This document shows, one piece after another, positions 10,915 to 42,920 of a DNA stretch of 64,000 nt. A model generated the notes under the pieces. It saw only the letters and a program-made list of their open reading frames with translations, had not been told where the DNA came from and did no database searches. Origin of the DNA: an uncultured Alphaproteobacteria bacterium (GTDB lineage Bacteria; Pseudomonadota; Alphaproteobacteria; RF32; CAG-239). Position 1 is the first letter of the stretch. The number at the start of each line of letters is the position of its first letter. The translations under genes were made by a program, and so were the position numbers. Location of the stretch: positions 123,136-187,135 of the forward strand of contig CAJTMA010000002.1 in the NCBI GenBank assembly GCA_910577205.1, given 5' to 3'.

Positions 10915-12624
10915 CTAGATTTCAAAATCAAGATTATCAAATGAATCCAGCGGGATAACTTTGTCCTCACCTTTTCCATAAGATATTTCTGCTTGGTCAC
11001 CGGGTTTGGTCCATTTAAGTTCCGGATAGAACTCCGTGCTGCCGGTAAACTCAACACCCTTCACCTCGTTAAAGAGAATGTAATATACATTGTTCTCTTG
11101 CACGATAGCGCGAACGGTCAACTTTTGAGTTTCCTTAACCACATCGCCGTCTTTTATTTTATCCTGAGATGTCTTTTTCAACATCCGCAGATAAGCGGCC
11201 TCAGCGTCTTGTTTAGCAGCACCGCAGCCAACAGCCTGACGGTTGTTAACAGCCAAGAAACAATAGCCAACCACATTGCCCGAACTGCCCTTCATGGTCA
11301 TGAAGTATGTCGGAATGCCGCGCACATTGTACAAAACCGGGAAATTGGCTTCATACCTCGCTGCTTTGGCAAACGGCTGGTCATTAGCTATACGCATAGC
11401 CTCTGTTTCATTGATACCAACCACACGGTAGAACTTAGCGGCCTTTGTTCTGGTATCAATCAGCATAAAACCGTTCGTTCCGTTGTCTGCTCCGGCTGAA
11501 CGGATACCTGTATACCAGAAGCTGCGCCCTTGGGAATAAACCAAAGTTGTTCCCGGGGTCGGTTCCTGTACGCCAATCTGTGCCCAGAAAGAATTCCACC
11601 ATCCGTCTTTATATTCGCCCCAGCAGCGTATCTGGTCTTCAATAAAGTCCTGCGGCTGGATGCGGTCAATCCAAGCGGGGGCGTCTTCAATGCTGTAAGC
11701 TTTGAGTTCGCCGGTTTGGGCATCAACGGTTATCGGACCTTCAGACTCTTCTCCGCAGAAACCGATTTTCTGATCATAGGAAGAAAGAACCCAATAAGGC
11801 GTGCCATTGCCGTCAATCTCAAAACAGTGGTCGTTTAAGCCCTTGGAGGCATAACCATGTTCTTTGATGTGGCGTTCAATGTCATCTCCGAAGCAACCGC
11901 TTTCAAGATACTTGATACGCAGAGGCTGTCCGTTAACTTCCGTTACCAGCCAACGCTTGGTGGCATCGGTTGCGTCAACAATGATGTAACCCGGGGTATA
12001 ACCGTTGCGCATCCACTTCCAGAAAGAGCGGTGTTCCAACGGGGCTACCCAAATCAAATCATCGTTAAACACCAGCTTTTTGCCATTGTTAATGGTAAAT
12101 TCGCCGGTGATGTTTTGGATGGTCATGTTACCAACCTCAACACGCGACCCAAGACCTAAGTCTTCACCCAGTTTGTCTTCAGCAACTTTGCGGGCCAATT
12201 TTCCGTCAACCGAAATCATTTTAGAAACCGGTATCGGGTGAACATCGGCATTGAAGACGCTGTCAGTGACAGTTTCCACTTTCAGACGATTGTAATACTC
12301 ATCAGCGTGGAACATCTCCCAGCTCTGAAACGCAGCAACAACCGCGGCCAAAAGCGTGATGCCTGTCGGAATGAAACGCACGAAGCTGCTTTTTTCCGTG
12401 CAGAAGCAATAGAAAGCGACTCCCAAAAGGGAAACGCAAAACGCCTCAATCCAAACGCCCTCAAATCCCCACCATTGGAGAACGGGCAAGTTGTTGTAGT
12501 TTATCAAACCGAAGAAAACGAAAACCAGCGTGCAAACAACAGCCCAAGCTGTTTTGTTCTCTTTGTGAAAACTCAGGACTGCAAACAAGGCAGTCATACC
12601 CAGTGTCAGCAAAAAATAGCTCAT
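10915..12624 (-). CDS. Membrane-anchored protein with large extracytoplasmic domain (hypothetical)
   Basis: Four N-terminal TM helices, then about 430 aa with no recognised motif. Confidence 0.55.
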   Translation of the reverse strand: MSYFLLTLGMTALFAVLSFHKENKTAWAVVCTLVFVFFGLINYNNLPVLQWWGFEGVWIEAFCVSLLGVAFYCFCTEKSSFVRFIPTGITLLAAVVAAFQSWEMFHADEYYNRLKVETVTDSVFNADVHPIPVSKMISVDGKLARKVAEDKLGEDLGLGSRVEVGNMTIQNITGEFTINNGKKLVFNDDLIWVAPLEHRSFWKWMRNGYTPGYIIVDATDATKRWLVTEVNGQPLRIKYLESGCFGDDIERHIKEHGYASKGLNDHCFEIDGNGTPYWVLSSYDQKIGFCGEESEGPITVDAQTGELKAYSIEDAPAWIDRIQPQDFIEDQIRCWGEYKDGWWNSFWAQIGVQEPTPGTTLVYSQGRSFWYTGIRSAGADNGTNGFMLIDTRTKAAKFYRVVGINETEAMRIANDQPFAKAARYEANFPVLYNVRGIPTYFMTMKGSSGNVVGYCFLAVNNRQAVGCGAAKQDAEAAYLRMLKKTSQDKIKDGDVVKETQKLTVRAIVQENNVYYILFNEVKGVEFTGSTEFYPELKWTKPGDQAEISYGKGEDKVIPLDSFDNLDFEI

Positions 12625-14273: not shown

Positions 14274-14475
14274 ATTCCTGTCCCTTAATCGTTATGATGA
14301 TTAAAAAAGCTACTCAAATCTATTCATTTAAGCAACTGATTTTTACCGTTAAAAGCATAAATCTTAAAAAAACATTAAAAAACGTGGTATAACTTTGCTG
14401 GCTGATTGACGAGAAACGCTCCATTGGTTAACAATACCTTGTCGACATTTATTTTTTAACCATGGTAGCAGATTG

Positions 14476-17400
14476 ATGACTTTTAAAATTTTCAATTTCA
14501 GGAGCATTGTTACATATCTGACAATTGTATCTTTTTATATTGCCTCAACGGTTTCAGCCGTTGCTGCTCCTATGCCGCCTATCAGCCTGGCACAAATGTA
14601 CAGCTTAGCAGCGCAGGGCAATGTCCGCGCGCTGAGAGCCGCGGTTCAGCGCGGTTTGAACATTGACGCTACCGACCGCTATGGCAACACCGGCTTATGT
14701 CACTCAATCTACCAGCATAACTACACTGCTTATAACGCTTTTCACGCATCCGGCGCGAACACACGCCATCCCTGCATTCAGAATATTCCGACCGAGCAAT
14801 ATGATTATTTTATGAACTCAAGCAGGGTTCAACCTATTACGGCGACTCCGCGTGATGCTTATAAAGAATTTGCTGACGGCGAATTTATTTTCTCCACGAC
14901 CACTTGGGTTGTCGGCGGTCTGCTGCTTGCCGGCGGAATCACAGCTTTAGTTTTGAGCAGCGGCGGCAAAAAGAAAAAGAAAGCTTATTACTTTCCGCCA
15001 AACAATGATAATACATTTAAGCCAACAGATGACAGTTTAGCTGCTTTTGCCGGAACTTTGACACCCTCTGATCCGGTCAGCAATCCTTATGTTCCGGTCA
15101 AAATTACCAATGGCTTAAACACGACTGACTTTATTTTAAATAATGACTCCCAAATTACGCTGGATGACGGCAGCAAAAAAAGTTTGGTTGATACCATTAA
15201 CTTTAACGACTCAGTTTTGGAATACAGTAAATATCTGCAAGTGGGTATGAAAGCTATTGACGGCAATCAGGTGGTTAACGGGCAAATTCCGTTAACGGGA
15301 ACAGAAGTCGGCACCACGATTACGCTCCTGAATAATACTGTCGGTATGGCTGCTTTGCATAATGCCAATGCTATCAATAACAATACATTAAAAATCATTG
15401 CCCGCAACGGCACTCTGGGGATGGTCGGCAGTGACCGCTCTTTGATACGCAACAACGGCAATATTGATATTGCCTTTCAGGGAACGTCCCCAACGGATCA
15501 GGTTAACGGAATGTACGTGGACACGTCGTCAACGGCTATTAATGACGGCAAGATTACCGGAAATGTTGCCGTAGACAGCGCCACGGGTACTCTTATCGGA
15601 ATGCAGGGACGCTTGATTAATCAAGTGTCTAATCCGGCCGGTTCTATCCCTATTCAACTGACAAACAACGGAAAAATTGAATTAAGCGCCACAGCGGCCG
15701 CGGGGAAAACCATTTCCAACTCGCTTATCGGGATGGGCAGTTTTCTGGAAAAAGCTTTTCTGGAAGGTACTAAACTGCTGCGTCGCACAGGTTTTATCGA
15801 TATTGCAAACTACGGCGATATTGATTTGAACGTTAATCTGGGCGATACCGGGACTTATGACTCGACACAGAGCAACCTTTATGACGGTACGGGCGGCATT
15901 ATCGGTATTCGTGCCGATGCGCACACCACCGCTTCCAATAACGGTAATATTAATTTGACTATTGCTCCGGAAAGCGCCGCCGGAATCGAAAATTCTCATG
16001 CCGGTATGTTCTCTGTTCATGGCGGAACGATTTCCAATAACAAAAACATCACCATCAGCGGCGGCATTGGCGGCTATGGGATGCTCGGGGTACGCGGCGA
16101 AGGCACTAACTCTGAATTTAACACTTTAAACCCGACTATTGTCAATTCGGCTTCCGGGACAATTACCGTTAACAGTGTTGACGGTTTTGGTATGGCAACC
16201 AGACATGGCGGCACTGTCGTTAATAACGGCACGATTATTATGGGCGACAAAGGTACTGGCTTACAGATTAATGCCGGAAGCGGCTCTAATACCGGCACAA
16301 TTACGCTTAATAACGGCGGTATCGGTATGGCGATTAAGAAAAACACGACTTCCAGCGATGGAACTATTTATAATGCCAGCACGGCCAAGCTGCAAAATGA
16401 AAACATAATTACAATCAACAACGCGAACGGCTCAAGCGGTATGTATATTGAAGACGGCCTGGCTAATAACTTAGGCGGCGTGATTAATGTCAACGGCATT
16501 AACACCACAACGGAATCGTCTTATGGTATCCGGGCGCTTAACGGAAAAGTTTTAAACAGCGGCGAAATCAATATGAATGTTCTGTTGTCCGGCGATTTGG
16601 ATTCTTACGGCATTTACGGGGATAACGCAACGACTGTCAATAACAGCGGAACAATTACATCTGTCCGCAAAGGCACGGGTATTTATACTACAAGCGGTTC
16701 AAGCACCAACTCTGGCAAAATTACCATGAACGGCCGGGGCAGCACGGGCATGGCTTCAGAAAGCGGCGCAATTACCAATACGGATAAAGGCGAAATAACC
16801 GTTATCAGCGGCACTGGTATCAAATCAACATCCGGACAAGTGATAAATGAAGGTAAAGTGATTATCACCGATGGCTCGGCATCAACCGGTATCTCCAGCG
16901 GCAGCAGTGTTATTAACTCCGGTTCAATCTCAATTACCGGCGCGGATTCGACCGGTATTGCCGTTGAAGAAAACGGCACAGCCTCCAACAGCGGTATTAT
17001 TACCCTGACCAGTAACCGTAACAGCACAGAAAACTTCGGTATGGTTTCGGCCGGAGGTGATCGGGCTCAGATTGAAAACAGCGGTATTATTACCCTAAAC
17101 GGCTATAACTACGCCTCCAGCAAAGAAAAAGGCTACGGAATGTCTATCGGTGACGGCCAAGCTATTAACAACAATATGATTACCATTAATCAGATGTACG
17201 GTTACGGCATGGCTTCCACTACCGGTACTTTGACAAATAACGGTGACATTACGTTAACCAACGGCGGTTACGGCATTAAAGGCGAAAGCGGTGAATCCTT
17301 TAACTCGGAAGGCGGCACAATTATCATTACCGGCACGCCCGTTTTGGAAAGCTCTTACGGTATGGCTATGGAAGACGGGACTGCCAAAAACTTTGGTAAA

Positions 17401-20400
17401 ATTGATGTTACCGGCAGCACGACAAATGATGCGACATATGGTATTTATGTCAATGGCGGTAACGGCATTAACCATAATCAGATTGATATGCGGTCAGACA
17501 ATGCTTATGGTATTTTTGACGCGGCATCCGGCGATGGTGCAATTACTAACTTTGCCGGCGCAGTCATCAACTTACATGGCAACAACTCTACCGGTATGCA
17601 AAGTTCCGGCAACAAAGCTGAAAACTACGGAACGATTAATATCGGCGTTAATAACGGCGGAACAGTTACCGGCGGTGTTAACGGCATCGGCATGACCGCA
17701 AATGACGGGACTACGGCCCTTAATTCCGGCCAGATTAACATGAACGGCGCAAATGCCGTCGGTATGTTTGCTGACGGCGGTACGGTTATCAACTCAGCTG
17801 ACGGCGTTATTACCATGAACGGCAATGGCGGCACAATCTTTAAAACCAGCAATGACGGTACGGCAATTAACCTGGGCGACATTGTCATTAATGCCCAAGA
17901 TTATAATCTGTTTACCACAACAGATACCGATGAAGGCAACTTTGTCAATAACGGCAATGTTACGGTCGGCGCTTCTGGATCACAGGTTATCCGCGTCGGA
18001 GATAACTCCAGCGTTACCAATAACAAAAATATTGATTTAAATGGCAGCAATGGTTTCATAATCTACACCAGCGGCAGCGGCAATGCGACCAATAACGGCA
18101 CTTTAAATATTGGTGCGGGAAGTGATAACTCGCATGGTATTTACATGAGCGAAACAGCTAACGGAACAGTTATTAATTCTTCGACAGGCATTATCAATGT
18201 TAACGGAAGCAATTCTAACGGCATGACGCTGGCTTCCAATGATACCTCTGCCAGCATTACCAACAAAGGTAAAATTAATGTCAGCGGTAATGGCTCAAAG
18301 GCGATTGCGGCCAGCAACGGCGGCACCATCAATAATGAGGGGACTATTACCATGAACGGCGGCAGCGCAGCCATTGAAGCGACTGGAGCTGTTGTCAATA
18401 ATAAAGCCGGCGCTACAATTACAACTGCCGCAAACAGCGATGCAGACGGCATAAAGGTCATCATGGGAGCAACACCTGACGCAGAAGCGGCAACGGTTAC
18501 CAATGACGGCACAATCATTATCAACGGTAATGGCGATGCTATTAATGCCAAAGGTTCGTCAACAGCCGCCGGTATGATGCATTCTATTACCAATAACAGT
18601 GTTATTACCATTAACGGTTCAGGCAGCGGCATTTTTGCAGATGCGGCAAATATCAATAACACCTCTTCGGCACGCATTAACATTAGCGGCAGCGGTTACG
18701 GCATCCGCCAGACCAGTGGTACAATCGACAACAGCGGGACAATTACAGTTACCGGAAATAACGGCACAGGTATTTCCAGCGGCGGAACGGCAACAAATAA
18801 CGGAACGATTACTGCCGGTGGAACAAATGCCAAAGGAATGGAACTTACTACAGGCGGCACAGGAACTAACAATTCCACAATTATAGCCAGCGGAACGGAT
18901 GCGGTCGGTATTTATGTTAATGGCGGCACTGCCGAGAATACAGGTAATATTTCAGCGTCAGGAACGGGCGCAACCGGCGTGTATGCAACAGGCGGAACAG
19001 CTTATAACCAGACCTCTATAAGCGTTAATGGCGATAATGCAATCGGCATGGCAGCAGGAAACGGCACAGTCACTAACGGCAAAACGATTGTCACGATTGA
19101 AACGGATGAAAGAGGCGATCCGGTTCTGGATGCTGATGGTAATGTTGTCACCAATACAGAACACAAACCCGGGGTTATTGATGTTACCGGAAATAATGCA
19201 GCCGGTATGAAATTAACCGGAACTGGAAAAGTCCTCAATAATACCGGCGCACTTATTTCTGTCAGCGGTGATGGCGCAACAGGTATTTGGGCTGCAGGCT
19301 CAGGCGTTGCCGAAAATGAAGGGACAATTACCGTATCTAACGCGACTAACGGCAGTTCGGGGATGAAAGCCACCAGCGGCACAGCCACAAATAAAGGCAC
19401 AATATCTGTCAGCGCAGACGGCGCTTGGGGAATGGATGCGGCCGGAGGCACTGTCGTCAATGACACAACCGGCATCATTGACCTTACGACAGCAAACAGT
19501 GTGGGTATTTATGTTCACAGCGGCAACGGCGAAAACAGAGGCGTTATCAACTTTACCGGAGAAAATACTATCGGGCTGTTGGCTGCCGGCGGAACAGCCA
19601 CTAATGCGGCGGATATAACAATCAACGGCACAGGTGTTGTCGGTTTATATGCTCATGGCGGAACGGTTGTTAATGCCAGCGGAAAAACTATTACCTTTAG
19701 TAACGGCGAAGCCGCTATCAAGGTTGACAGCGGCAGCGGTCGCAATGCAGGTACGATTAATGTCGACGGCGGAAACTTAAACGCTATTCTGGTTAGCGGT
19801 GGCAATGCCTCTAATGACGGCACGATAGAACTCACCTCCTCTGCCAGCGGCAGTATCGGCATGAAAGCAACTGCCGGAACAGCAACCAACAACGGGACGA
19901 TTACTATCGCCAGCAATGCGGCAGGTATGGATGCTTCCGGTTCAGGACAAGTCGCCAACAACAAAACAATTACTGTTTCCGGAGCAAATGCGGTTGGCAT
20001 GAGCGCTTCCGGCGGCACGGCGACCAATAACAGCAACGGCACGATTACAGTCACCGGAGCTAATGCGAAAGGTATGGCTGCCAGCAGCGGAACTGTCTTA
20101 AACAATGGCACAATCAATGCAACCGCAGCCAATACGATTGCGATGTATGCCAACGGCGGCACGGCCACTAACGGCAGCAGCGGCAAAATCAACACCTCGG
20201 CTTCCTCGGCATATGTTATGCTGGCTGAGGGAACAGGTACAGTCAACAACCAAGGGACAATATCTTATTCCGGTTCTGGGGCGGCCTTACAAGCGAATGG
20301 GGCAACGGCCAATAACAGCGGTATCATTACAGCCACTAACGGTACGGGCATGGCCGCGTACGGGACAGCATCTTCAGGAGGCAAAGCTGTCAACAGCGGC

Positions 20401-35031: not shown

Positions 35032-35108
35032 CGGGATGTAGCGCAGCCTGGTAGCGCATTTGCATGGGGTGCAAGTGGTCGCTGGTTCGAATCCAGTCAT
35101 CCCGACCA
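35032..35108 (+). tRNA. tRNA-Pro (anticodon GGG)
   Basis: 77-nt cloverleaf: acceptor CGGGATG/CATCCCG, D-arm GCGC-AGCCTGGTA-GCGC, anticodon stem TTTGC/GCAAG with loop ATGGGGT, T-arm GCTGG-TTCGAAT-CCAGT, 3-prime CCA encoded. Confidence 0.9.
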
Positions 35109-35580
35109 ACCGCACGGCGGTAGCGATTAAGTGATTGTGTGCCGCAATAAAATAATGTGCTTTAAGAGTCAGCTTGTCTGGCTCTTTTTTATTGGATTGG
35201 GTGGCCGATGAGAACCAGCGAGGAAGCTGGTTTGACAAGGAGAAGCCGGCGAGACGGAAGTATCGCCGCTCTTGCGACGACGAAGCGGCGAAGTGAAACG
35301 AGCCAATCCAGTCAGCCGTACAACGGCACGGCGGTAGCGATTAAGCGATTGTGTGCCGCAATAAAATAATGTGCTTTAAGAGTCAGCTTGTCTGGCTCTT
35401 TTTTATTGGATTAGGCGGCCGATGAGAACCAGCAAGGAAGCTGGTTTGACAAGGAGAAGCCGGCGAGACGGAAGTATCGCCGCTCTTGCGACGACGAAGC
35501 GGCGAAGTGAAACGAGCCAATCCAGTCAGCCCGACCAACCGCACGGCGGTAGCGAAACCAACCGCACGGCGGTAGCATTA
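35109..35580 (+). repeat. Two tandem copies of a 214-bp unit plus two short 23-bp copies; each long copy ends in a pseudo tRNA-Pro 3-prime end (att-like direct repeats)
   Basis: cacggcggtagcga recurs at 35113, 35327 and 35542 (plus 35565). 35526-35554 (cagcccgaccaaccgcacggcggtagcg) matches tRNA 3-prime end plus flank 35098-35125 at 28 of 29 positions. Confidence 0.8.
35165..35190 (+). terminator. Terminator downstream of tRNA-Pro, repeated at 35379..35404
   Basis: agagtcag-cttgt-ctggctct hairpin plus TTTTTT. Confidence 0.6.
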
Positions 35581-35682
35581 AGTGATATAAAAAATCAAAA
35601 AAATATATCTTGAATAAAAAAAATAATTGACAATCTATATTTGTGTTTATAGACTTTTTAAGTTAAATCTCAAAGGAATGTT

Positions 35683-35799
35683 ATGGTAACAACAAGTCAA
35701 AATTTATTTATTTTTGAAAGCGCTAAGAACGGCGCTGCTTTGGTTTGCTTGTTGTCTATTTTCATTATTTCTATCTTGTTTCTGATTATCTGCCTCTGA
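35683..35799 (+). CDS. Candidate small hydrophobic protein (38 aa) MVTTSQNLFIFESAKNGAALVCLLSIFIISILFLIICL
   Basis: AAGGA RBS 7 nt upstream of the ATG. Single predicted TM helix. Lies between the att-like repeats and the island genes. Confidence 0.3.
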   Translation: MVTTSQNLFIFESAKNGAALVCLLSIFIISILFLIICL

Positions 35800-35891
35800 G
35801 CATTTTCTTTTGAATTAAAGTATGGGTGCTCAGGGGGAAACGCTGACATACTTTAGTTTGCAAAAAGTTCAGATAATCAGGATAAAACAGG

Positions 35892-37601
35892 ATGACACAC
35901 CAAACAGAAAATACAATAGAAGAAACCCAACAAACTTTCGCTGACTATTTTAATTTAGCAGGACAAAAGGATTTTAGAAAATTCTATTATGATTGGCATA
36001 TCGACAGTATGCTCGCGCCTTTTGCCGGCATGGCCGTACATTTTCAAAAAACATATGGGAAAGATGCCGAACTGCAATTTGCCAAACTTGCCGATGAAAT
36101 TACGCAGAATGTTCAAGACTACAATAATGACAAGCCCCAATTGAGTTTGCTCAAAACATCCAAGTTCAGCCATGGAAATACAAAGAGGCTTTCATCTTTA
36201 TTGGAGGGAATAGAAAGTTTTGGGTTTGATTTTCGGCAGTTTTTATACAGTTTTGCTCCGCAAGAAGACCACAACCGGGAATTTGGGAATTGGTTTGTCA
36301 AACCTAATATGCCCTACTCTAATCATCATGGGCTGATGGTCAGTTGCGATATTCTGCAATTTTTGAAAAAAATTTTTAACCAGATTGCCCAAGGCAACGA
36401 CACTTATCAACGGGCTTTATATGCGGCAGATGTTTATTTGCGGCAGCATATTGTCAAAGGTTACCGCTATGATGAAAATTATACTTTTTTCAGCCGCAGG
36501 AAATCAATGCGCCAATTACGCAGCCTGCGCAGTAAATTAAGCAAAAATTTTCGCCAGCAGCCGCTCAATGAAAATTTGCAGGATATATTCCAAACAGAAA
36601 AGCCCGGACTGCCACCGCAAAGCCGTTCCTACAGACCTAATGGTTTTGAGCTTGAATTTTATGTGCCTGAAGAATTTGGCAATTATGATAAGCTGATTAA
36701 TTATCTGAAAGAGAAAAACGGTTGGCAAAAATTGTATTCATCAAATAAAGATGCCGATGTTTATTTGGATGAAAATTCTGCCGGCGTTATCATGCGTGAT
36801 GAAAGCTTAGTCAGGTATAATAATCTGGCGGCTGTCGAATATGCCAGTTCTGTCATGCGGCGCAAGGAAGATGAACAAAACTGCCTTAAAATTCTTGATG
36901 CCTTTGACGAGGGGCACGTCAATGTCCATTGCTCCCTGCACCAGCATATATCAGCAGAAGGATTTGATTTGGCAACCTATAAGCGGCTTGTCAAACGGAT
37001 GATGCAGCATGAGGCGGAAATCGTCAGGGCTTTTGCCGCCCCGGAAAGGCGCGATAATAAATTGCTTTATGCAACTTATATCAGCCGCAATTTAAGCAAT
37101 AACGGCGAGAGAGATTATCCGTTTTTATGCGTTATGACCGATTTATGCGATAACAAACAGGAATTGCTTGATATGTCGGCTTTCGGACACAAATATAAAA
37201 CCTTAAACATACTGCCAAGCAAAACTGTCGAAATGCGTTTTATGAATGCAAATTTCAACAAGCGTTTTGTGGAGGCTTTCCTGCAATTCAACCGGGATTT
37301 TGTTAATGCCGCGGTAGAAAATTCTCCGCAGCATCTTAACCGGGCGGCTCTTAATAAATATAACTGGCATAACAATGTCGAAACAGACACGAAAACAGTC
37401 CAACACGGCCTGCCCTATTACTATCAGATTTCTTACGACACCTATAATCCAATGCGGCGCGATGCATCAAAAGAAGCTGTCGAAGGCGAGCAAACTTATG
37501 CACGTCTGGTTATGCACGCCTTGAATGAAACCGGAAAATTAAAGTATATTAATCCCGGTTACCATAAAAAGATGAAGGAGGTTATCGCTTATGGAAGATA
37601 A
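35892..37601 (+). CDS. Hypothetical 569-aa protein (candidate ligase or effector), translationally coupled to the downstream FGase-family gene
   Basis: Long ORF with no recognisable motif. Its stop overlaps the next start by 11 nt. Confidence 0.55.
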   Translation: MTHQTENTIEETQQTFADYFNLAGQKDFRKFYYDWHIDSMLAPFAGMAVHFQKTYGKDAELQFAKLADEITQNVQDYNNDKPQLSLLKTSKFSHGNTKRLSSLLEGIESFGFDFRQFLYSFAPQEDHNREFGNWFVKPNMPYSNHHGLMVSCDILQFLKKIFNQIAQGNDTYQRALYAADVYLRQHIVKGYRYDENYTFFSRRKSMRQLRSLRSKLSKNFRQQPLNENLQDIFQTEKPGLPPQSRSYRPNGFELEFYVPEEFGNYDKLINYLKEKNGWQKLYSSNKDADVYLDENSAGVIMRDESLVRYNNLAAVEYASSVMRRKEDEQNCLKILDAFDEGHVNVHCSLHQHISAEGFDLATYKRLVKRMMQHEAEIVRAFAAPERRDNKLLYATYISRNLSNNGERDYPFLCVMTDLCDNKQELLDMSAFGHKYKTLNILPSKTVEMRFMNANFNKRFVEAFLQFNRDFVNAAVENSPQHLNRAALNKYNWHNNVETDTKTVQHGLPYYYQISYDTYNPMRRDASKEAVEGEQTYARLVMHALNETGKLKYINPGYHKKMKEVIAYGR

Positions 37602-38328
37602 GCCTTTTGAATTTATTCCGGCAGCAAAAAGCAGCCCTTTTATCCTTACCTGCGAACACGCAGCCGCAGATATCCCTGACAAATATCATCATTTGGGATT
37701 GTCTGATGCAGACTTAAACAAACATATCGCCAGAGATAAAGGGGCTGGCGATATCTGCCGCTTGCTAGCAGAGAAGCTGGGCTGCGCTGCTTTTTTAGGA
37801 AAATATTCTCGGTTGTTAATTGACTTAAACCGCCGGACGGATGAAAGCGAACTCATCGTTAAGGAAAGCGATAAAATACAGATTCCCGGGAATGCCGATT
37901 TGTCTGATGCTGAACGGCAGAAGCGCATTGACCGTTTCTATGCCCCTTATTATAAAGCCATCAATGCCTACATTGATAATATGAAACAACAAGGCATAAC
38001 TCCGGTTATATTTTCAATTCACAGTTACACCCCGCAGCTTAAGGGAGGTAATTACCGTCCCTGGCAAGCAGGCGTTCTATATCACAAACCTGCGGCTTTT
38101 GCAGATTATCTTTATAAAAATTTAGCGAAAAGCTCTAAAGTCATTGGTGAAAATGTGCCTTATGATTTGCGGCAATATAACACCGGCGCGGTTATTATTT
38201 GCGGTGAAGAAAAAGGGTTGGATTATGGCCTGATTGAAATCCGCGATGACGAATTTGACAATCTGGCAGCCGGTGCTGCAGAATGGGCACAAATCCTCTC
38301 CGATATAATGTTAAAATACCGGAGCTGA
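37591..38328 (+). CDS. N-formylglutamate amidohydrolase (FGase) family hydrolase
   Basis: FILTCEHAAADIP, LIDLNRRTDE and IHSYTP segments resemble the FGase family. GGAGG RBS. Confidence 0.6.
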   Translation: MEDKPFEFIPAAKSSPFILTCEHAAADIPDKYHHLGLSDADLNKHIARDKGAGDICRLLAEKLGCAAFLGKYSRLLIDLNRRTDESELIVKESDKIQIPGNADLSDAERQKRIDRFYAPYYKAINAYIDNMKQQGITPVIFSIHSYTPQLKGGNYRPWQAGVLYHKPAAFADYLYKNLAKSSKVIGENVPYDLRQYNTGAVIICGEEKGLDYGLIEIRDDEFDNLAAGAAEWAQILSDIMLKYRS

Positions 38329-38332
38329 ATCA

Positions 38333-39613
38333 CTATTTGATTGTATTTTCCGCCTGCCAGCCTTTGGCAGCGCGGTTAATGCGATCATGGTATTGAGAGG
38401 CTGCACCGGGAATGGCAACCTGCCCGCAAACTAACGTTTTCCCCGATTGTAACAATTCCGGAAGCTCCCAAACTTTATTATCTAATTTATATCTGGCCAA
38501 ATCTGCAAATAATCTGGCTTCCATATAATCGCCAAACCCGGAAACAGTGATTGACGTTTTTCCGCCCAGGCGGCGTACCAAAGCGGCAAATTGCTGCCGG
38601 TGTTCCGGCAAGACTATCCCTTTTCCGGCAAGCAAATCTTCAAAACTTTTTTTAACGACCGGATTTTTCCAACCGCCGCCAAACAATATTATTCTATGGG
38701 GAATGGCAATATTTTCAGGAACTAAAGTCAGCGCCTGAACAGCGATATAAGCCGCAAAATATTCAAAGGTATGAACCGCATCCTCAAAACTAATCCCCAG
38801 CTGCTGAACATAGTTAAAAATTTCATTTTTATGATAATAAGCAGGATCTCCTGATTTAGGCAGAGGCAATTCATAATACCCTCGCCCAAAATTAAATAAC
38901 TCCTGCAATATGGTTTCATTCAGCCTGCCTTTTTTTCCGAACATTGCATCACGGTCAAAAGCTTCGTTGGTATGGCGGCGGATATAAGCATCCGTATATT
39001 CATTGAAAGGTCCGGCATCAGCGCCAATCCGTGCTACGCCATCAGCAACCAAAGCAAAATTGGAGGTATTGCCGCCATTATAATAACAGCCGTCCCCTTC
39101 GCTGGCGGAAATACGGGCATTATGAGGCGGCACTAAGGGCGCACCATCAAACCCGGCCATCAACAGGTCTGAACGGAAATCATAGATAACCGGAATACCG
39201 GTTAAGTCAGCCAGCATTTGCCCCGAGCCTATTTGCAATGTATAGGGCTGCGTCTTTTCTTTACGGGCTTTGGATGGCGGATTATGATCCAGCGTTTTGC
39301 CGTGAAAGCCTATTGCATCAACCGAGGTTTTATCAATTTTATTCAGCGCACACATTTCATTTATGCACTCGGCTATTTGGCTAATATATTCGTCATGAAT
39401 GTTTTGAAACTCCGGCAGAGCTTCAATTTCCGCCTTGGTCTTATTAAAAGCCCTGGCGCGCAGATATTCGATTTTATCTTGCATTTCTTTGGCATAGGGT
39501 TTGGTGTAGGTGCAGATGTCCTGCATAACATTGCCGTCAAACCTTGTCAGGACTAAATCAATGGCATCCATCGAATTGCCTGTCATATTCCCTATTATCG
39601 TATATACCGGCAT
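38333..39613 (-). CDS. Anhydro-N-acetylmuramic acid kinase (AnmK/UPF0075)-like sugar kinase, divergent
   Basis: N-terminal IIGNMTGNSMDAIDLVLTRF resembles the AnmK IGxMSGTSxDGID motif. 426 aa is longer than canonical AnmK. AGGGGAG RBS. Confidence 0.55.
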   Translation of the reverse strand: MPVYTIIGNMTGNSMDAIDLVLTRFDGNVMQDICTYTKPYAKEMQDKIEYLRARAFNKTKAEIEALPEFQNIHDEYISQIAECINEMCALNKIDKTSVDAIGFHGKTLDHNPPSKARKEKTQPYTLQIGSGQMLADLTGIPVIYDFRSDLLMAGFDGAPLVPPHNARISASEGDGCYYNGGNTSNFALVADGVARIGADAGPFNEYTDAYIRRHTNEAFDRDAMFGKKGRLNETILQELFNFGRGYYELPLPKSGDPAYYHKNEIFNYVQQLGISFEDAVHTFEYFAAYIAVQALTLVPENIAIPHRIILFGGGWKNPVVKKSFEDLLAGKGIVLPEHRQQFAALVRRLGGKTSITVSGFGDYMEARLFADLARYKLDNKVWELPELLQSGKTLVCGQVAIPGAASQYHDRINRAAKGWQAENTIK

Positions 39614-39751
39614 CTCCCCTCCTGCTATAAATGCTCTTTAATCAGTAGTACAAAAATAAAATTAAGAATTAATAAAATTTTTATAGCCAAAAAAATATTT
39701 TCCGGCTATAATGATTTTATAATGAACCAAAAATTTCAATGGAGATCAGAA

Positions 39752-41047
39752 ATGTCTGGGGATATTAAAAAAAGCATCAAAGGCCGTATTAACAAAATCA
39801 AAGATACGCTTTCCCGTAAAAAAGAATTAATTGCCGCCGGTTTTATGTTAGCAACAGGATCTACCGGAGTTTCCAGTAACCCCATACCTGAACATTTTAA
39901 TTCCGGCGAAGAAAAAGTTGTTCGTTTGCCTGAAAATCCATCCAGCAAAATTGTTCAGGATGCCGCCAGCGAAATGAAAAGCTTGTCAACAGAAGATGCC
40001 GTTCGTACTTTGGAAGAACATGGCGCGTTTTTTGTGGATTATGAAAACTTTGTTAAAACCGGCGATGTATCCTCCTCTATTGTATATTTTACACAAGAAC
40101 AAATGGCAGAAAAAGGCCTCAAATCCATCGGAACTTCCCCTTATGATGTCAGTTTGGCACGGGAAAACCACGCCGTTTTGACAGGAGATAAAGAAAAAGA
40201 TGCTGAAACTAAAATGAAAGCATTCAGCAATATTAAAGGCACGTTTAACGGTGGTTACCAATTTAATAAAAGCAATATGGAAAATATTGTTCTCTGGGGA
40301 TTGATTCAGGAAGATAACCAAGAAATCAAAGATTTTTGCAAAAAATTTGTCCGTCCGGGCGTGGATATTGAAAAAGACCAGCGATTTGCCAAATACAGCA
40401 ATCAGTGGCAAAAAGAGATGTCTAAAGTTAAGCAAGGTAAATATTCCGAAACGTATGCATTGAACCTTTTATGCCGGACAGATAACAGCAACCGCGCCTC
40501 TGCGCTTAGCTGTCTTGAGGTTAATAAACCTAATTTTAATAAAATATCTAAAGAAAATCCTAAAGCCAGCGAAATTGCCCAGCAGGGATTTTGCGATAAT
40601 GTCTATTTAAGGATGTCGAAGTATTATAAGGATTTCCGTAATGCCAGCTTTACGGCTGCTCCGGCGGCATTCAGCGCATATATTCATATGCCCAATGCCT
40701 CTGCAACGCCGGGAATTTTAAAGAATGCGGCTTTATCCGAACAACAAAAAGCACAGCAAATCATCAACAGGGAAAGCAGCCAAGGCTCTCATGGCAGAAA
40801 GCTTATGGAGCAGGCTCAGGCAAGTATTTATAATAAAGGCTTTCCGGAATTAGAATGCTTTAAGGAATGGGCTGAGATAACAGGACGGGAAGATGTTGTC
40901 AAAGGGATTAATAAAGGCGTAGAACTGCTTGCTTCCAGCCAGATAGAAAAAATCCCTGTCGATAAAAATATGTATGCTTCAATTACCACAAATGCTGAGG
41001 GAACAGCTCAGGCAATTTTCCAAAAGCAAAGCCAGCATACGCTTTAA
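39752..41047 (+). CDS. Hypothetical protein (431 aa), Lys/Glu/Asn-rich
   Basis: GGAGA RBS 6 nt before ATG 39752. No recognisable catalytic motif. Confidence 0.5.
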   Translation: MSGDIKKSIKGRINKIKDTLSRKKELIAAGFMLATGSTGVSSNPIPEHFNSGEEKVVRLPENPSSKIVQDAASEMKSLSTEDAVRTLEEHGAFFVDYENFVKTGDVSSSIVYFTQEQMAEKGLKSIGTSPYDVSLARENHAVLTGDKEKDAETKMKAFSNIKGTFNGGYQFNKSNMENIVLWGLIQEDNQEIKDFCKKFVRPGVDIEKDQRFAKYSNQWQKEMSKVKQGKYSETYALNLLCRTDNSNRASALSCLEVNKPNFNKISKENPKASEIAQQGFCDNVYLRMSKYYKDFRNASFTAAPAAFSAYIHMPNASATPGILKNAALSEQQKAQQIINRESSQGSHGRKLMEQAQASIYNKGFPELECFKEWAEITGREDVVKGINKGVELLASSQIEKIPVDKNMYASITTNAEGTAQAIFQKQSQHTL

Positions 41048-41058
41048 AACGTGATTTA

Positions 41059-41901
41059 TCAAGCTGCCGTCGCCAGATAAAACCATTCGGACTGCACGGC
41101 AGCTTCATGATTCGGGATTAAGATATAGCCGTTGTCAGGCGCGGCAAATTCCTCTCCGTCATCATACCGACCAATGACTTCTCCTGCAGAAATTTCATCC
41201 AAGTGCTTATAGTTTTTCAGAAGTTTTCCGGGTTTTTCCTTAATGACAACTTTTTCCAGTTTTAAGTAGGTTTTAGGCTGTTCGGTAAATTCTCCGGCTG
41301 TCATTCCCAGTTTTATTAATAAATTAACAATGCTTGCAAAAGCAACCTCTTCCGCCGCGTGATCATAGTGATAGCCGCATTCCAGCGTGATGCAGGATTT
41401 TCCCGATTTATGCGCAAAATATTCGGTACAGTAATCGGCTATCGGTGCATCCTTGTAAATGCCCGGCCAATTACAAATAACATAAGAGGCTGCTGCCGCA
41501 GAAACAAGTTTCCGATTCTCATCTGAGGGATAATCTAAAAAAACAAACGGAGGCTCTCCGGCATTATGGGTAGAATGCATATCCAGCACATAGTCATTAT
41601 TCAATATTTCAGTTGCGACTTCATGGGCAAATTCTTCTTCCGGGCAAGACGGGGCAACATAGAGGTTGATGAGGCGGTTCAAGTTTTTTTCCATGAAACG
41701 CACGCCGTGCTCATAAGCCAGCGGATTGCAGACAGGCAACAAAACCAAACTTCCGGATTTCAGGTTGATTTCATTGTTGTCCAGCGCAGACATCAATTTC
41801 CGGATGGCTTTGGTTCCGGCTGTTTCATTGCCATGAATTGCCCCCAGCAAAAGCAGTTTCGGACCGGGGATGCGGCTGTCGTAAATATATTTATCTAGCA
41901 T
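41059..41901 (-). CDS. Succinylglutamate desuccinylase / aspartoacylase (AstE/AspA) family zinc hydrolase
   Basis: LLLGAIHGNETAG zinc-binding motif. About 280 aa. Confidence 0.7.
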   Translation of the reverse strand: MLDKYIYDSRIPGPKLLLLGAIHGNETAGTKAIRKLMSALDNNEINLKSGSLVLLPVCNPLAYEHGVRFMEKNLNRLINLYVAPSCPEEEFAHEVATEILNNDYVLDMHSTHNAGEPPFVFLDYPSDENRKLVSAAAASYVICNWPGIYKDAPIADYCTEYFAHKSGKSCITLECGYHYDHAAEEVAFASIVNLLIKLGMTAGEFTEQPKTYLKLEKVVIKEKPGKLLKNYKHLDEISAGEVIGRYDDGEEFAAPDNGYILIPNHEAAVQSEWFYLATAA

Positions 41902-42694
41902 AGTTTCTCCTTGTTAAAAGCATCAGATTAGCAGGCTGATAATAGTCGCTGTTAACCAGCCGCAGGGCTTCTGTTTCCGAATTGTAACCAGTTGCAATAT
42001 GGCGGGCCGCAAATAATTTATTGAGGCTTTTATAATCATTCACCGGAATTTCGAAATGTTCATTTGACTGATATAAAGGCGTTTTATCCAATCGGCGATG
42101 CATTAAGGCGATATCTCCGCCATCAGAAGGATCAACATCTGCCCCCATCATAACAAACTCATTGGCAAAATACGGACGCATATTCCAAATATTTTTACGG
42201 TCAATAATCGAAACACAATCTGTCGCTCCAAGCAATTCCGCCTGTTTCATCCGGTATCTAATCATGTTTTCATTAATCCTGTTGCCGCGATAAGACGGGT
42301 GGACGCTGTCTGCCCCAAAACAGGCAACCTGAAATTCTTTCCCTAAAAAGGCATTGTTTCTGCTTGGAAACTCTTCAAATAATTCTTTCCGGCTACGGAC
42401 GATACGCACATAAGACATCGCAATAAGCTGGCCGCCATCAAAAGCTCCGACAAAATGCATTTTGGGGTTATCCATCATCTGTTCATAATATGTGCGGTCA
42501 TGCTGGTGAATAAAGCACTCCTGTCCTTTTTCCAGAGAATGATAAATGCAGGATGACAATTCGACCATCGCAGGAATATCCCGTACGCTGAGTTTGCGCA
42601 GGTGATAGAACTTTTCTGTTTCAACCGGCCGATGATTAATTTTATTCATGGAGGCATAAGCCAAAACTCTGTTTCCTCGGTTATAAATCTGCAT
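41891..42694 (-). CDS. Hypothetical protein, possibly GNAT-like acyltransferase; overlaps the AstE/AspA-family gene by 11 nt
   Basis: 267-aa ORF with a VHPSYRGNRINENMIRYRMKQAELLGA segment. Translationally coupled to the downstream hydrolase. Start uncertain: GTG at 42706 or ATG at 42694. Confidence 0.45.
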   Translation of the reverse strand: MQIYNRGNRVLAYASMNKINHRPVETEKFYHLRKLSVRDIPAMVELSSCIYHSLEKGQECFIHQHDRTYYEQMMDNPKMHFVGAFDGGQLIAMSYVRIVRSRKELFEEFPSRNNAFLGKEFQVACFGADSVHPSYRGNRINENMIRYRMKQAELLGATDCVSIIDRKNIWNMRPYFANEFVMMGADVDPSDGGDIALMHRRLDKTPLYQSNEHFEIPVNDYKSLNKLFAARHIATGYNSETEALRLVNSDYYQPANLMLLTRRNYAR

Positions 42695-42920
42695 TTTCTT
42701 TTCCACACAAAAAAAGCCGAAACTTTAAAGTTTCGACCCGTCTAAATTTTCATACTTTCAGTAACTACATGACATATACAAAAACAGGTCGAAAACTGCG
42801 TTTCGACTTCTGCTTGTTTTCAATTACAGTAAAATGGTTATTCATTCATACCTCTTGTTACTTACTTTGGCTAAGATAACCTCTGTTATTTATATTGTCA
42901 AGCAATAAGACAAAATTTGC

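Follow-up and report, generated by a model that had tools for sequence, protein, structure and literature searches.

We analysed a stretch of 64,000 nucleotides (nt) from an uncultured bacterium of the Alphaproteobacteria (RF32; CAG-239), which corresponds to positions 123,136 to 187,135 on the forward strand of contig CAJTMA010000002.1 (assembly GCA_910577205.1). The whole stretch is hereafter called the window, and all coordinates refer to it. Two overlapping genes on the plus strand are the subject of this study: an open reading frame (ORF) of 569 amino acids (aa) at 35892..37601, for which we propose the function of an amide ligase, and an ORF of 245 aa at 37591..38328, encoding a hydrolase of the FGase family. 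The two genes are preceded by a conserved leader with a small ORF of its own (Table 1). In a first-pass annotation, made from the sequence alone, the two genes had been regarded as a translationally coupled pair with an 11-nt overlap, in which an FGase-family hydrolase may be combined with a novel ligase, albeit the larger protein was left without a family assignment. The overlap is indeed 11 nt long: the hydrolase ATG (37591-37593) lies within the end of the ligase gene, GCT TAT GGA AGA TAA (A-Y-G-R-stop; TAA at 37599-37601), and an AGGAGG sequence is found at 37576-37581, 9 nt 5' of this ATG. The gene downstream of the hydrolase gene, which encodes an AnmK kinase (38333..39613), is in convergent orientation, and the 245-aa gene is therefore the last of the transcription unit.

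Distribution and conservation of the gene pair

The pair was surveyed in one genome per species, yielding 51 loci, all of which were found in metagenome-assembled genomes (MAGs) from gut or rumen labelled as Alphaproteobacteria, 'Proteobacteria bacterium CAG:495', 'Acetobacter sp. 46_36' and similar. A homolog of the FGase-family hydrolase was detected by tblastn immediately downstream of the ligase gene in 49 of these loci, and the pairing put forward in the first-pass annotation is thus a feature of the group. The inferred overlap between the two genes was 8-17 nt in 48 of the 49 loci (11 nt in 22 loci, 17 nt in 16, 14 nt in nine and 8 nt in one), and a purine-rich, Shine-Dalgarno-like stretch precedes the hydrolase start. 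The gene overlap is no chance feature. The two loci without an FGase neighbour (L042 and L051) carry second ligase copies, and the same MAGs hold the paired copies L017 and L010. One of these paralogs, L042 in MAG JAZKXV01, retains the leader element and is followed by a gene for an ICMT/PEMT-like membrane methyltransferase; the other, L051, is in MAG CAZRHI01. The gene order is reversed in P0107, the branch that diverges most, with the FGase gene upstream of the ligase gene.

A word-indexed search recovered full-length homologs of the ligase in 112 clusters sharing 43-99% identity, of which the named ones belong to uncultured Alphaproteobacteria, and the exact protein sequences of the window also occur on many public contigs. 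The genes flanking the pair vary from locus to locus. When all ORFs of 70 aa or more lying up to 6 kb from the pair were clustered for 52 loci, the ligase was found in all 52 and the hydrolase in 50, and the next most frequent family occurred in 15 loci; neither a third conserved protein partner nor a conserved transporter was found in this clustering. The ligase and the hydrolase are an obligate, translationally coupled pair with no further conserved protein partner, and the pair is confined essentially to one lineage of abundant gut and rumen bacteria.

The 569-aa protein matches the Pfam family Amidoligase_2 (PF12224) with 29.2 bits against a curated gathering cut-off of 22, residues 312-470 covering profile positions 73-244. 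PF12224 is also the precomputed annotation of its homologs, and NCBIfam contains no match for the protein. The family motifs, namely a G-x-E-x-E strand, D-x-S, E...S-P, H-x-H and E-x-R, are all present. The residues G251, E253, E255, D303, S305, E316, S319, H350, H352, E374, Y435, N439, E447 and R449 correspond to invariant or near-invariant columns in 19 minimal members of PF12224, and an alignment of 31 full-length members of the family of the window protein showed most of these positions to be invariant and the rest nearly so. An AlphaFold2 model built from the family alignment (mean predicted local distance difference test score (pLDDT) 88.5; predicted template-modelling score 0.89) retrieved YbdK as the first-ranked structure in Foldseek, with a probability of 0.99. 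Among the folds considered in the first-pass annotation were the amidoligase and glutamine-synthetase-like ones, and the model agrees with them: the core of the protein is predicted to adopt the glutamine-synthetase-like fold of carboxylate-amine ligases. By analogy with such enzymes, the protein would spend ATP on an acyl-phosphate intermediate, from which the amide is then made. Sequence searches of the PDB matched no chain even at E 10 with a profile of the whole ligase, and gave noise only (E 0.5) with a profile of the N-terminal domain. The C-terminal extension is kept throughout the family alignment and, in part, among distant relatives as well (a TGKL..P/N motif); it was modelled with pLDDT values of 64-92. 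Judged directly from the sequences, neither the ligase nor the hydrolase has an obvious signal sequence.

The assignment of the 245-aa protein to the FGase family is clear, as the Pfam profile PF05013 matches residues 15-220 over profile positions 1-216 of 219 (E 1e-32; 114.5 bits against a cut-off of 28.9). Its best solved relative is Atu2144 (PDB 2ODF, from structural genomics), aligned over residues 11-239 with an E-value of 2e-31. Ten residues (H23, D49, D78, N80, R81, H144, R156, W158, E216 and R218) do not vary among 30 homologs and outgroups; H23 sits in a CEH motif, and H23, D78, N80, R81, H144, E216 and R218 align with 2ODF. For the poly-gamma-glutamate hydrolase PghL, the nearest structures after its homologue PghP are the FGase-fold structures 2ODF and 2Q7S (PMC6506827), and by analogy with PghL and carboxypeptidases the conserved residues of the window protein are putative zinc ligands and a putative general base (PMC6506827). 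The enzyme is probably a metal-dependent amidase of N-acyl-amino-acid or gamma-glutamyl type. The Atu2144-type FGase family is conserved in Alphaproteobacteria (PMC12559287), and the window hydrolase derives from an Atu2144-type protein of this class. Outgroups of the hydrolase, which share about 40% identity with it, occur in an FGase-DUF1244-GapR context with no ligase.

Table 1. Coordinates of the leader, the gene pair and the adjacent tRNA gene in the window
Feature	Position	Strand	Basis or remark
tRNA-Pro(GGG)	35032-35108		Rfam match at gathering level
Conserved leader, ~280 nt	35617..35901	+	blastn, nhmmer and profile matches upstream of the ligase gene
Promoter-like site, TTGACA-17 nt-TAGACT	35627..35655	+	Consensus scan, 10/12 matches
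Leader ORF, 38 codons, MVTTSQNLFIFESAKNGAALVCLLSIFIISILFLIICL	35683..35799	+	AAAGGAA ahead; TGA stop
Structured leader RNA	35781..35881	+	Helices D, A and B; covariation in 20 sequences
Helix D	35781-35790 with 35872-35881	+	86% paired; 3 compensatory pairs
Helix A	35793-35802 with 35827-35836	+	100% of cells paired; 4 compensatory pairs
Helix B	35817-35824 with 35847-35854	+	98.8% paired; 5/8 pairs compensatory
Helix C (inside B), GGTGCTC with GAGCACC		+	2 compensatory pairs
Alternative terminator-like hairpin (B enclosing C) and U-rich stretch	35817..35859	+	Energies and covariation
Ligase residues 1-245	35892..36626	+	All-helical N-terminal domain, specific to the clade
Ligase residues 246-480	36627..37331	+	Amidoligase_2 catalytic core, predicted glutamine-synthetase-like fold
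Ligase residues 481-569	37332..37601	+	Conserved C-terminal extension and stop codon
FGase-family metallo-amidohydrolase, 245 aa	37591..38328	+	PF05013

The leader upstream of the ligase gene

The intergenic gap upstream of the ligase gene is long throughout the loci (~290-800 nt), and the ~280 nt before the ligase ATG are kept at the DNA level even though the proteins are only 55-78% identical and the upstream genes differ. With the leader of the window as a query, blastn and nhmmer found matches at the equivalent position in ~28 loci. A profile made of 20 copies matched all loci of the clade with at least 55% identity, the unpaired paralog L042 included, with E-values of 1e-27 to 1e-62; its matches in the ~52% clade were weak, and it matched once within the 64-kb window. 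The only match in a motif scan of metagenomes lies directly upstream of another ligase-hydrolase pair. Altogether, the leader stands ahead of the pair in essentially all related loci, as well as ahead of the unpaired L042. No Rfam family matches the leader: tRNA-Pro is the only match at gathering level in the window, and the best sub-threshold match across 35540-35950 (E 0.48) is to an unrelated viral small nuclear RNA model. The small RNA (sRNA) alphaR8, a neighbour of the FGase gene elsewhere, was also considered; the Rfam scan of the leader gave no match, albeit alphaR8 may have no Rfam model. A TTGACA element and a TATA-type box occupy the same alignment columns across the homologous loci, albeit the number of promoter-like sites in the region is not above that expected from shuffled sequences.

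An in-frame ORF of 35-42 codons was found at the leader position in all 36 loci examined, divergent clades included, together with a conserved Shine-Dalgarno sequence of its own (AAGGA-N-ATG). Its last 20 residues consist of 30% Leu, 24% Ile, 13% Ser and 7.5% Phe, as compared with 9%, 5%, 5.5% and 5.3%, respectively, in the two enzymes; the Ile and Leu codons are scattered, and the region is U-rich. A small hydrophobic ORF of this kind may recall a type I toxin, but we set this idea aside, as the ORF is strictly syntenic with the ligase gene in about 50 species.

In the 3' part of this ORF and the ~85 nt behind it, four helices can be drawn that are strongly supported by sequence comparison (Table 1; the pair counts of helices A, B and D were made on 20 leader sequences). 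When the registers were slid by 1-3 columns, pairing fell to 32-51%, and RNAalifold recovered helix A unaided. In all clades, the 5' arm of helix A includes the stop codon of the leader ORF; this codon is TGA here and TAG or TAA elsewhere, and where it is TAG or TAA the partner strand of helix A is altered to match. The last six codons of the ORF make up the 5' arms of helices D and A, and the 3' arm of helix D overlaps the Shine-Dalgarno sequence of the ligase gene, AGGA (35880-35883). The fold with helices D and A has an energy of -39.2 kcal/mol (z -5.0). Because the sequence TGCTCAG is common to the 3' arm of helix A and to helix C, helix A and the hairpin of B and C are mutually exclusive. 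In the window copy this hairpin reaches -13.5 to -17.4 kcal/mol (z -4.7 for the latter value) and is followed by six U; it is weak and was not called by a simple terminator scan. Its energy is about -20 to -30 kcal/mol in several other species (z -4.6 to -7.0; -20.4 in L008 and -30.4 in L050, with U runs after it), and the hairpins of L008, L023, L050 and L055 are strong ones (-21 to -28 kcal/mol, with 7-10 U in 12 nt). At least seven U in 12 nt follow the hairpin in 10 of the 20 leader members. The leader thus combines a conserved ORF that looks translated with helices that exclude each other and with one helix that covers the ribosome-binding site of the ligase gene.

Partner exchange among distant relatives, and the genomic setting

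An exhaustive profile search of 1.84 billion representatives yielded only 78 proteins at E <= 1e-3. Among them are a few distant full-length relatives sharing the N-terminal helical domain, and the others include minimal amidoligases that match residues ~300-480 only. The distant two-domain relatives score 25-70 bits against PF12224, and their genes have other neighbours. In P0129, a gene for an AstE/AspA-family deacylase overlaps the ligase gene by 23 nt. P0130, P0132 and P0134 are in a cluster of genes for an aminotransferase, a radical SAM protein, a RimK ATP-grasp protein, the ligase, a Peptidase_C26 and a GNAT protein, and the gene for Peptidase_C26, which is of the gamma-glutamyl hydrolase type, starts 1-2 nt after the ligase gene in P0132 and P0134. 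Amides of glutamate or aspartate are the substrates of all three hydrolase families, FGase, AstE/AspA and C26. The exchange of the partner among these families in sister clades restricts the candidate bonds to amides of acidic amino acids. The conserved unit is thus a ligase with an amide hydrolase behind it, the latter having been replaced non-orthologously between clades.

Several further observations concern these relatives. A recurrent cluster in L062 and L065-L067 comprises genes for a PrnB-like or unassigned protein, an aminotransferase, a radical SAM protein, a RimK ATP-grasp protein, the two-domain amidoligase, Peptidase_C26 and a GNAT protein, and would tie that branch of ligases to the biosynthesis of small molecules or peptides. 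P0118 is fused to a DUF2156/LPG_synthase_C domain, and alanine racemase, a beta-lactamase-fold hydrolase and a paralogous ligase follow it; at 6001-13097 of L058, the fusion with DUF2156/LPG_synthase_C (an aminoacyl-tRNA-dependent transferase) forms an apparent operon with the same three genes, which hints at D-Ala or cell-envelope chemistry in this branch. P0123 comes after an Asp/Glu-racemase-like gene, and amino-acid racemase genes thus adjoin two distant relatives (P0118 and P0123).

The pair itself is located on the native chromosome and not on an island. The G+C content is ~0.42 throughout the region, with no shift, and the remainder of the window consists of chromosomal housekeeping genes, such as those for Mfd, RecG, RecJ, AdhE, an FtsK-like protein and a pyrophosphatase. 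A search for defence genes gave zero PADLOC matches, a PHROG scan produced only a weak 'amidoligase' match, and neither the window proteins nor their relatives were found in the viral contigs searched. On these grounds, together with the flat G+C profile, an origin from a phage or an island was rejected. The first-pass annotation also placed the pair downstream of an 'att scar'. Such a structure is real as sequence, since a 214-nt unit stands twice in tandem behind the tRNA-Pro gene (35102-35315 and 35316-35529; 97% identical), and the 3' end of the tRNA is repeated at 35519-35555. Neither an integrase nor cargo was found between the copies, which could equally be a simple tandem duplication, and the 'scar' is incidental to the pair because homologous pairs elsewhere sit in unrelated contexts.

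Besides AnmK, the neighbours of the pair in the window are genes for a pyrophosphatase, an AstE-like protein and a GNAT protein, and an ORF of no known family. On the minus strand, 2.7 kb from the pair, an AstE/AspA deacylase gene (41059..41901) is overlapped by a weakly GNAT acetyltransferase-like ORF (41891..42706); the closeness of this second pair of acyl-amino-acid enzymes (41059-42706) is not kept in other loci. The AstE/AspA family also supplies the hydrolase coupled to a distant relative of the ligase (L063). Three other ORFs in the window are without a significant Pfam family, namely a giant one on the plus strand (14473-22263; 2596 aa, TTG start; no match at E <= 1e-3), one of 441 aa on the plus strand (39722-41047) and one of 568-569 aa on the minus strand (10915-12624). 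The last, nearly equal in length to the ligase, was considered as its relative and found to be unrelated (best BLASTP E 0.30).

Proposed function and alternative explanations

We propose, at a probability a little above one half (about 0.55), that the locus is a self-contained operon, in which a leader ORF and RNA switch governs an ATP-dependent carboxylate-amine ligase and an amide hydrolase, both acting on an amide linked to an acidic amino acid. The ligase would activate a carboxylate as acyl-phosphate and couple it to an amine, giving an amide of the gamma-glutamyl or N-acyl-Glu/Asp type, and the clade-specific N-terminal helical domain probably picks the second substrate. The hydrolase, made in a fixed ratio with the ligase from the overlapping gene, would be a zinc-type amidohydrolase that cuts this bond or an N-acyl-amino-acid bond chemically next to it. 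Together, the two enzymes may attach an amide 'handle' to a small molecule and later take it off, or tune the level of an amino-acid conjugate. As for the regulation, a ribosome at the leader stop codon would block helix A, so that the competing terminator-like hairpin forms (off), and a ribosome stalled earlier, plausibly on Ile or Leu codons, would allow helix A to form (on). Helix D would hide the ribosome-binding site of the ligase gene, and translation through the end of the leader ORF would open it. We infer the bond chemistry, the substrates, the direction of regulation and the link to Ile/Leu supply; judging from the gene context, the bond probably involves a Glu/Asp-type residue, possibly of a D-amino acid, and the two enzymes may act on the same or on successive intermediates.

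Several points weigh against this proposal. A ligase and a hydrolase that are co-expressed and act on one bond would run a futile cycle, unless an intermediate step or regulation separates them, and no intermediate enzyme is conserved near the pair in the 52 loci. The literature that we searched (on PF12224, and on amidoligase together with FGase) yielded no Amidoligase_2 member with a demonstrated substrate, and therefore the proposed bond is deduced solely from the partner enzymes. Enzymes of the glutamine-synthetase fold also act as amidases, as Dop does, and hence the label 'ligase' is a prediction and not proven. The leader has weak points as well: (i) the ORF contains no run of one amino acid, unlike classical attenuators, (ii) roughly half of the members, like the window copy, have only a weak terminator-like hairpin, and (iii) conservation at the three codon positions of the ORF is 0.70, 0.76 and 0.70, with no relaxation at the third position, a pattern that fits a regulatory ORF and does not by itself prove translation.

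A more specific version is attractive as a speculation, albeit with only a modest chance of being right. The leader would be an Ile/Leu-sensing leader-peptide switch, and a ligase of the glutamine-synthetase fold, with a new substrate-selecting helical domain, would together with the FGase-type deacylase make or convert a novel amino-acid conjugate, e.g., a gamma-glutamyl or N-acyl branched-chain amino acid.

Alternatively, the pair may serve catabolism or salvage. In this case, a Dop-like amidase assisted by ATP/ADP and the FGase-type deacylase would break down a conjugate available in the gut and set free one of its amino acids, which may be Ile or Leu, and the operon would be switched on when ribosomes stall at Ile/Leu codons. 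Attenuators that respond to an amino acid normally govern genes through which more of it becomes available, and the leader, with Ile and Leu making up 54% of the ORF tail, has the architecture of such an attenuator; moreover, the FGase, AstE/AspA and C26 partners are all deacylating enzymes. Nevertheless, the residues conserved family-wide match those of ligases (sequence cannot tell a ligase from an amidase), sister clades are found in biosynthetic-looking clusters with RimK ATP-grasp, radical SAM, aminotransferase and GNAT genes, and no transporter is conserved beside the pair. We thus regard salvage as unlikely.

The idea of peptide tagging, raised in the first-pass annotation, can be extended to a reversible modification of proteins or peptides, as by Pup ligase and depupylase or RimK. 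An amino acid or peptide would be joined by the ligase to a side chain or terminus of a protein and stripped off by the hydrolase, with the helical domain as the part that finds the target. The fold predicted for the ligase is also that of PafA and Dop, and a large extra domain could bind a macromolecule. However, neither a small tag protein with a C-terminal Gln/Glu nor a proteasome/Mpa linkage is seen at the locus, no proteasome or target gene recurs nearby, and the one small ORF that is conserved is hydrophobic, has Leu as its last residue and lies within the regulatory RNA. Characterised enzymes of the FGase family work on small N-acyl amino acids. Protein tagging is accordingly quite unlikely in our view.

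The small upstream ORF may also yield a functional product, either a membrane protein that partners the enzymes or a precursor peptide, which the ligase modifies at a carboxylate and the hydrolase trims. The ORF is in frame in every locus examined, a hydrophobic tail of ~20 residues and an 'LLIS(L)'-like end are kept even where DNA similarity is weak, and its position directly 5' of modifying enzymes is that seen in precursor-peptide loci. Yet R, Q and N break the hydrophobic stretch in several species, relaxation at the third codon position is absent, and much of the C-terminal conservation is explained at the RNA level, given that a covarying helix contains the stop codon and that the final six codons serve as helix arms. 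We give this explanation very little weight. Finally, ordinary histidine utilisation, with the 245-aa protein as HutG (N-formylglutamate deformylase) beside an unrelated neighbour, is suggested by the strong Pfam match and the automated name 'N-formylglutamate amidohydrolase' of close homologs, but was rejected because the protein scores 33.9 bits against a cut-off of 278.75 for the HutG equivalog TIGR02017 and no hut genes occur in the neighbourhood or are conserved around the 52 loci, while its closest relatives outside the clade are Atu2144-type proteins in an unrelated context and its adjacency to, and overlap with, the ligase gene are conserved.

The combination of an Amidoligase_2 gene with a gene for an amide-cleaving enzyme is a kind of system already predicted in 2009. 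Iyer, Abhiman, Burroughs and Aravind reportedly described such systems as widespread in phages and proteobacteria beside a glutamine amidotransferase (GATase)-like gene, and their work is said to be the source of the ligase-hydrolase and peptide-tagging idea of the first-pass annotation. In the Pfam description of PF12224, the adjacent gene is for a GATase-like thiol peptidase or an AIG2-type cyclotransferase. The window pair resembles these systems in its catalytic domain, which has all the invariant residues, and in the order of a ligase gene and then a gene for an amide-cleaving enzyme. It differs from them in several respects. The partner is a metallo-hydrolase of the FGase family in 49 of the 51 loci, and a Peptidase_C26/GATase neighbour occurs only in a distant sister clade; the ligase adds a helical N-terminal domain of ~245 residues and a C-terminal extension of ~90 residues, whereas typical members are 260-330 aa long; and the pair is chromosomal in gut Alphaproteobacteria, with none on viral contigs and a leader switch of its own. 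The pairing of the phage amidoligase (PF12224) with a GATase has been described as functionally unexplored (PMC10580990).

YbdK/GCS2, glutamine synthetase and Glu-Cys ligase differ from the window ligase in domain architecture; the window ligase lacks the beta-grasp N-domain of glutamine synthetase, and its profile has no detectable sequence similarity to any PDB chain. PuuA/PuuD, EgtA/EgtC and LysX/LysK likewise combine an ATP-dependent amide ligase with a hydrolase removing the added group, and the sister clade has a PuuD-type Peptidase_C26 at the position of the hydrolase; however, those pathways have intermediate enzymes and involve other families, whereas only two enzyme genes are conserved here. 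The Atu2144-type FGase, represented by CCNA_00780 in Caulobacter, where it is beside the alphaR8 sRNA, is the closest solved relative of the window hydrolase, but it occurs with DUF1244 and GapR and with no ligase. The leader shares a short ORF, mutually exclusive helices and a helix over the ribosome-binding site with leader-peptide attenuators (ilv, leu, trp and his) and leaders that sequester the Shine-Dalgarno sequence (ermC); its enrichment in particular codons and its hairpin with a U stretch, which is weak in the window copy, may be further parallels. In contrast to those attenuators, it precedes a ligase/hydrolase pair and not a biosynthetic operon, has its stop codon within the antiterminator arm in all clades, contains no homopolymeric codon run and matches no Rfam leader family.

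Our search of the literature on amidoligase with FGase, PF12224 and Atu2144 found no description of a ligase-FGase pairing. With respect to the literature and databases searched, the FGase partner, the two-domain architecture with its orphan helical domain, the restriction to one lineage, the swapping of partners and the leader ORF with its RNA switch are new. With two enzymes, no other conserved genes and essentially one lineage, the locus is an exceptionally simple case from which to approach Amidoligase_2, a large family that occurs in bacteria, phages and fungi. As the pair has a dedicated leader switch, the inducing signal would point to the purpose of the pathway, and the leader, with a stop codon in a covarying helix and a helix over the ribosome-binding site, could be catalogued as a new regulatory RNA. 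If the Ile/Leu-sensing version of our proposal is true, the locus would for the first time connect the Amidoligase_2 family with a physiological role and a regulatory signal, and would add a new class of cis-regulatory RNA.

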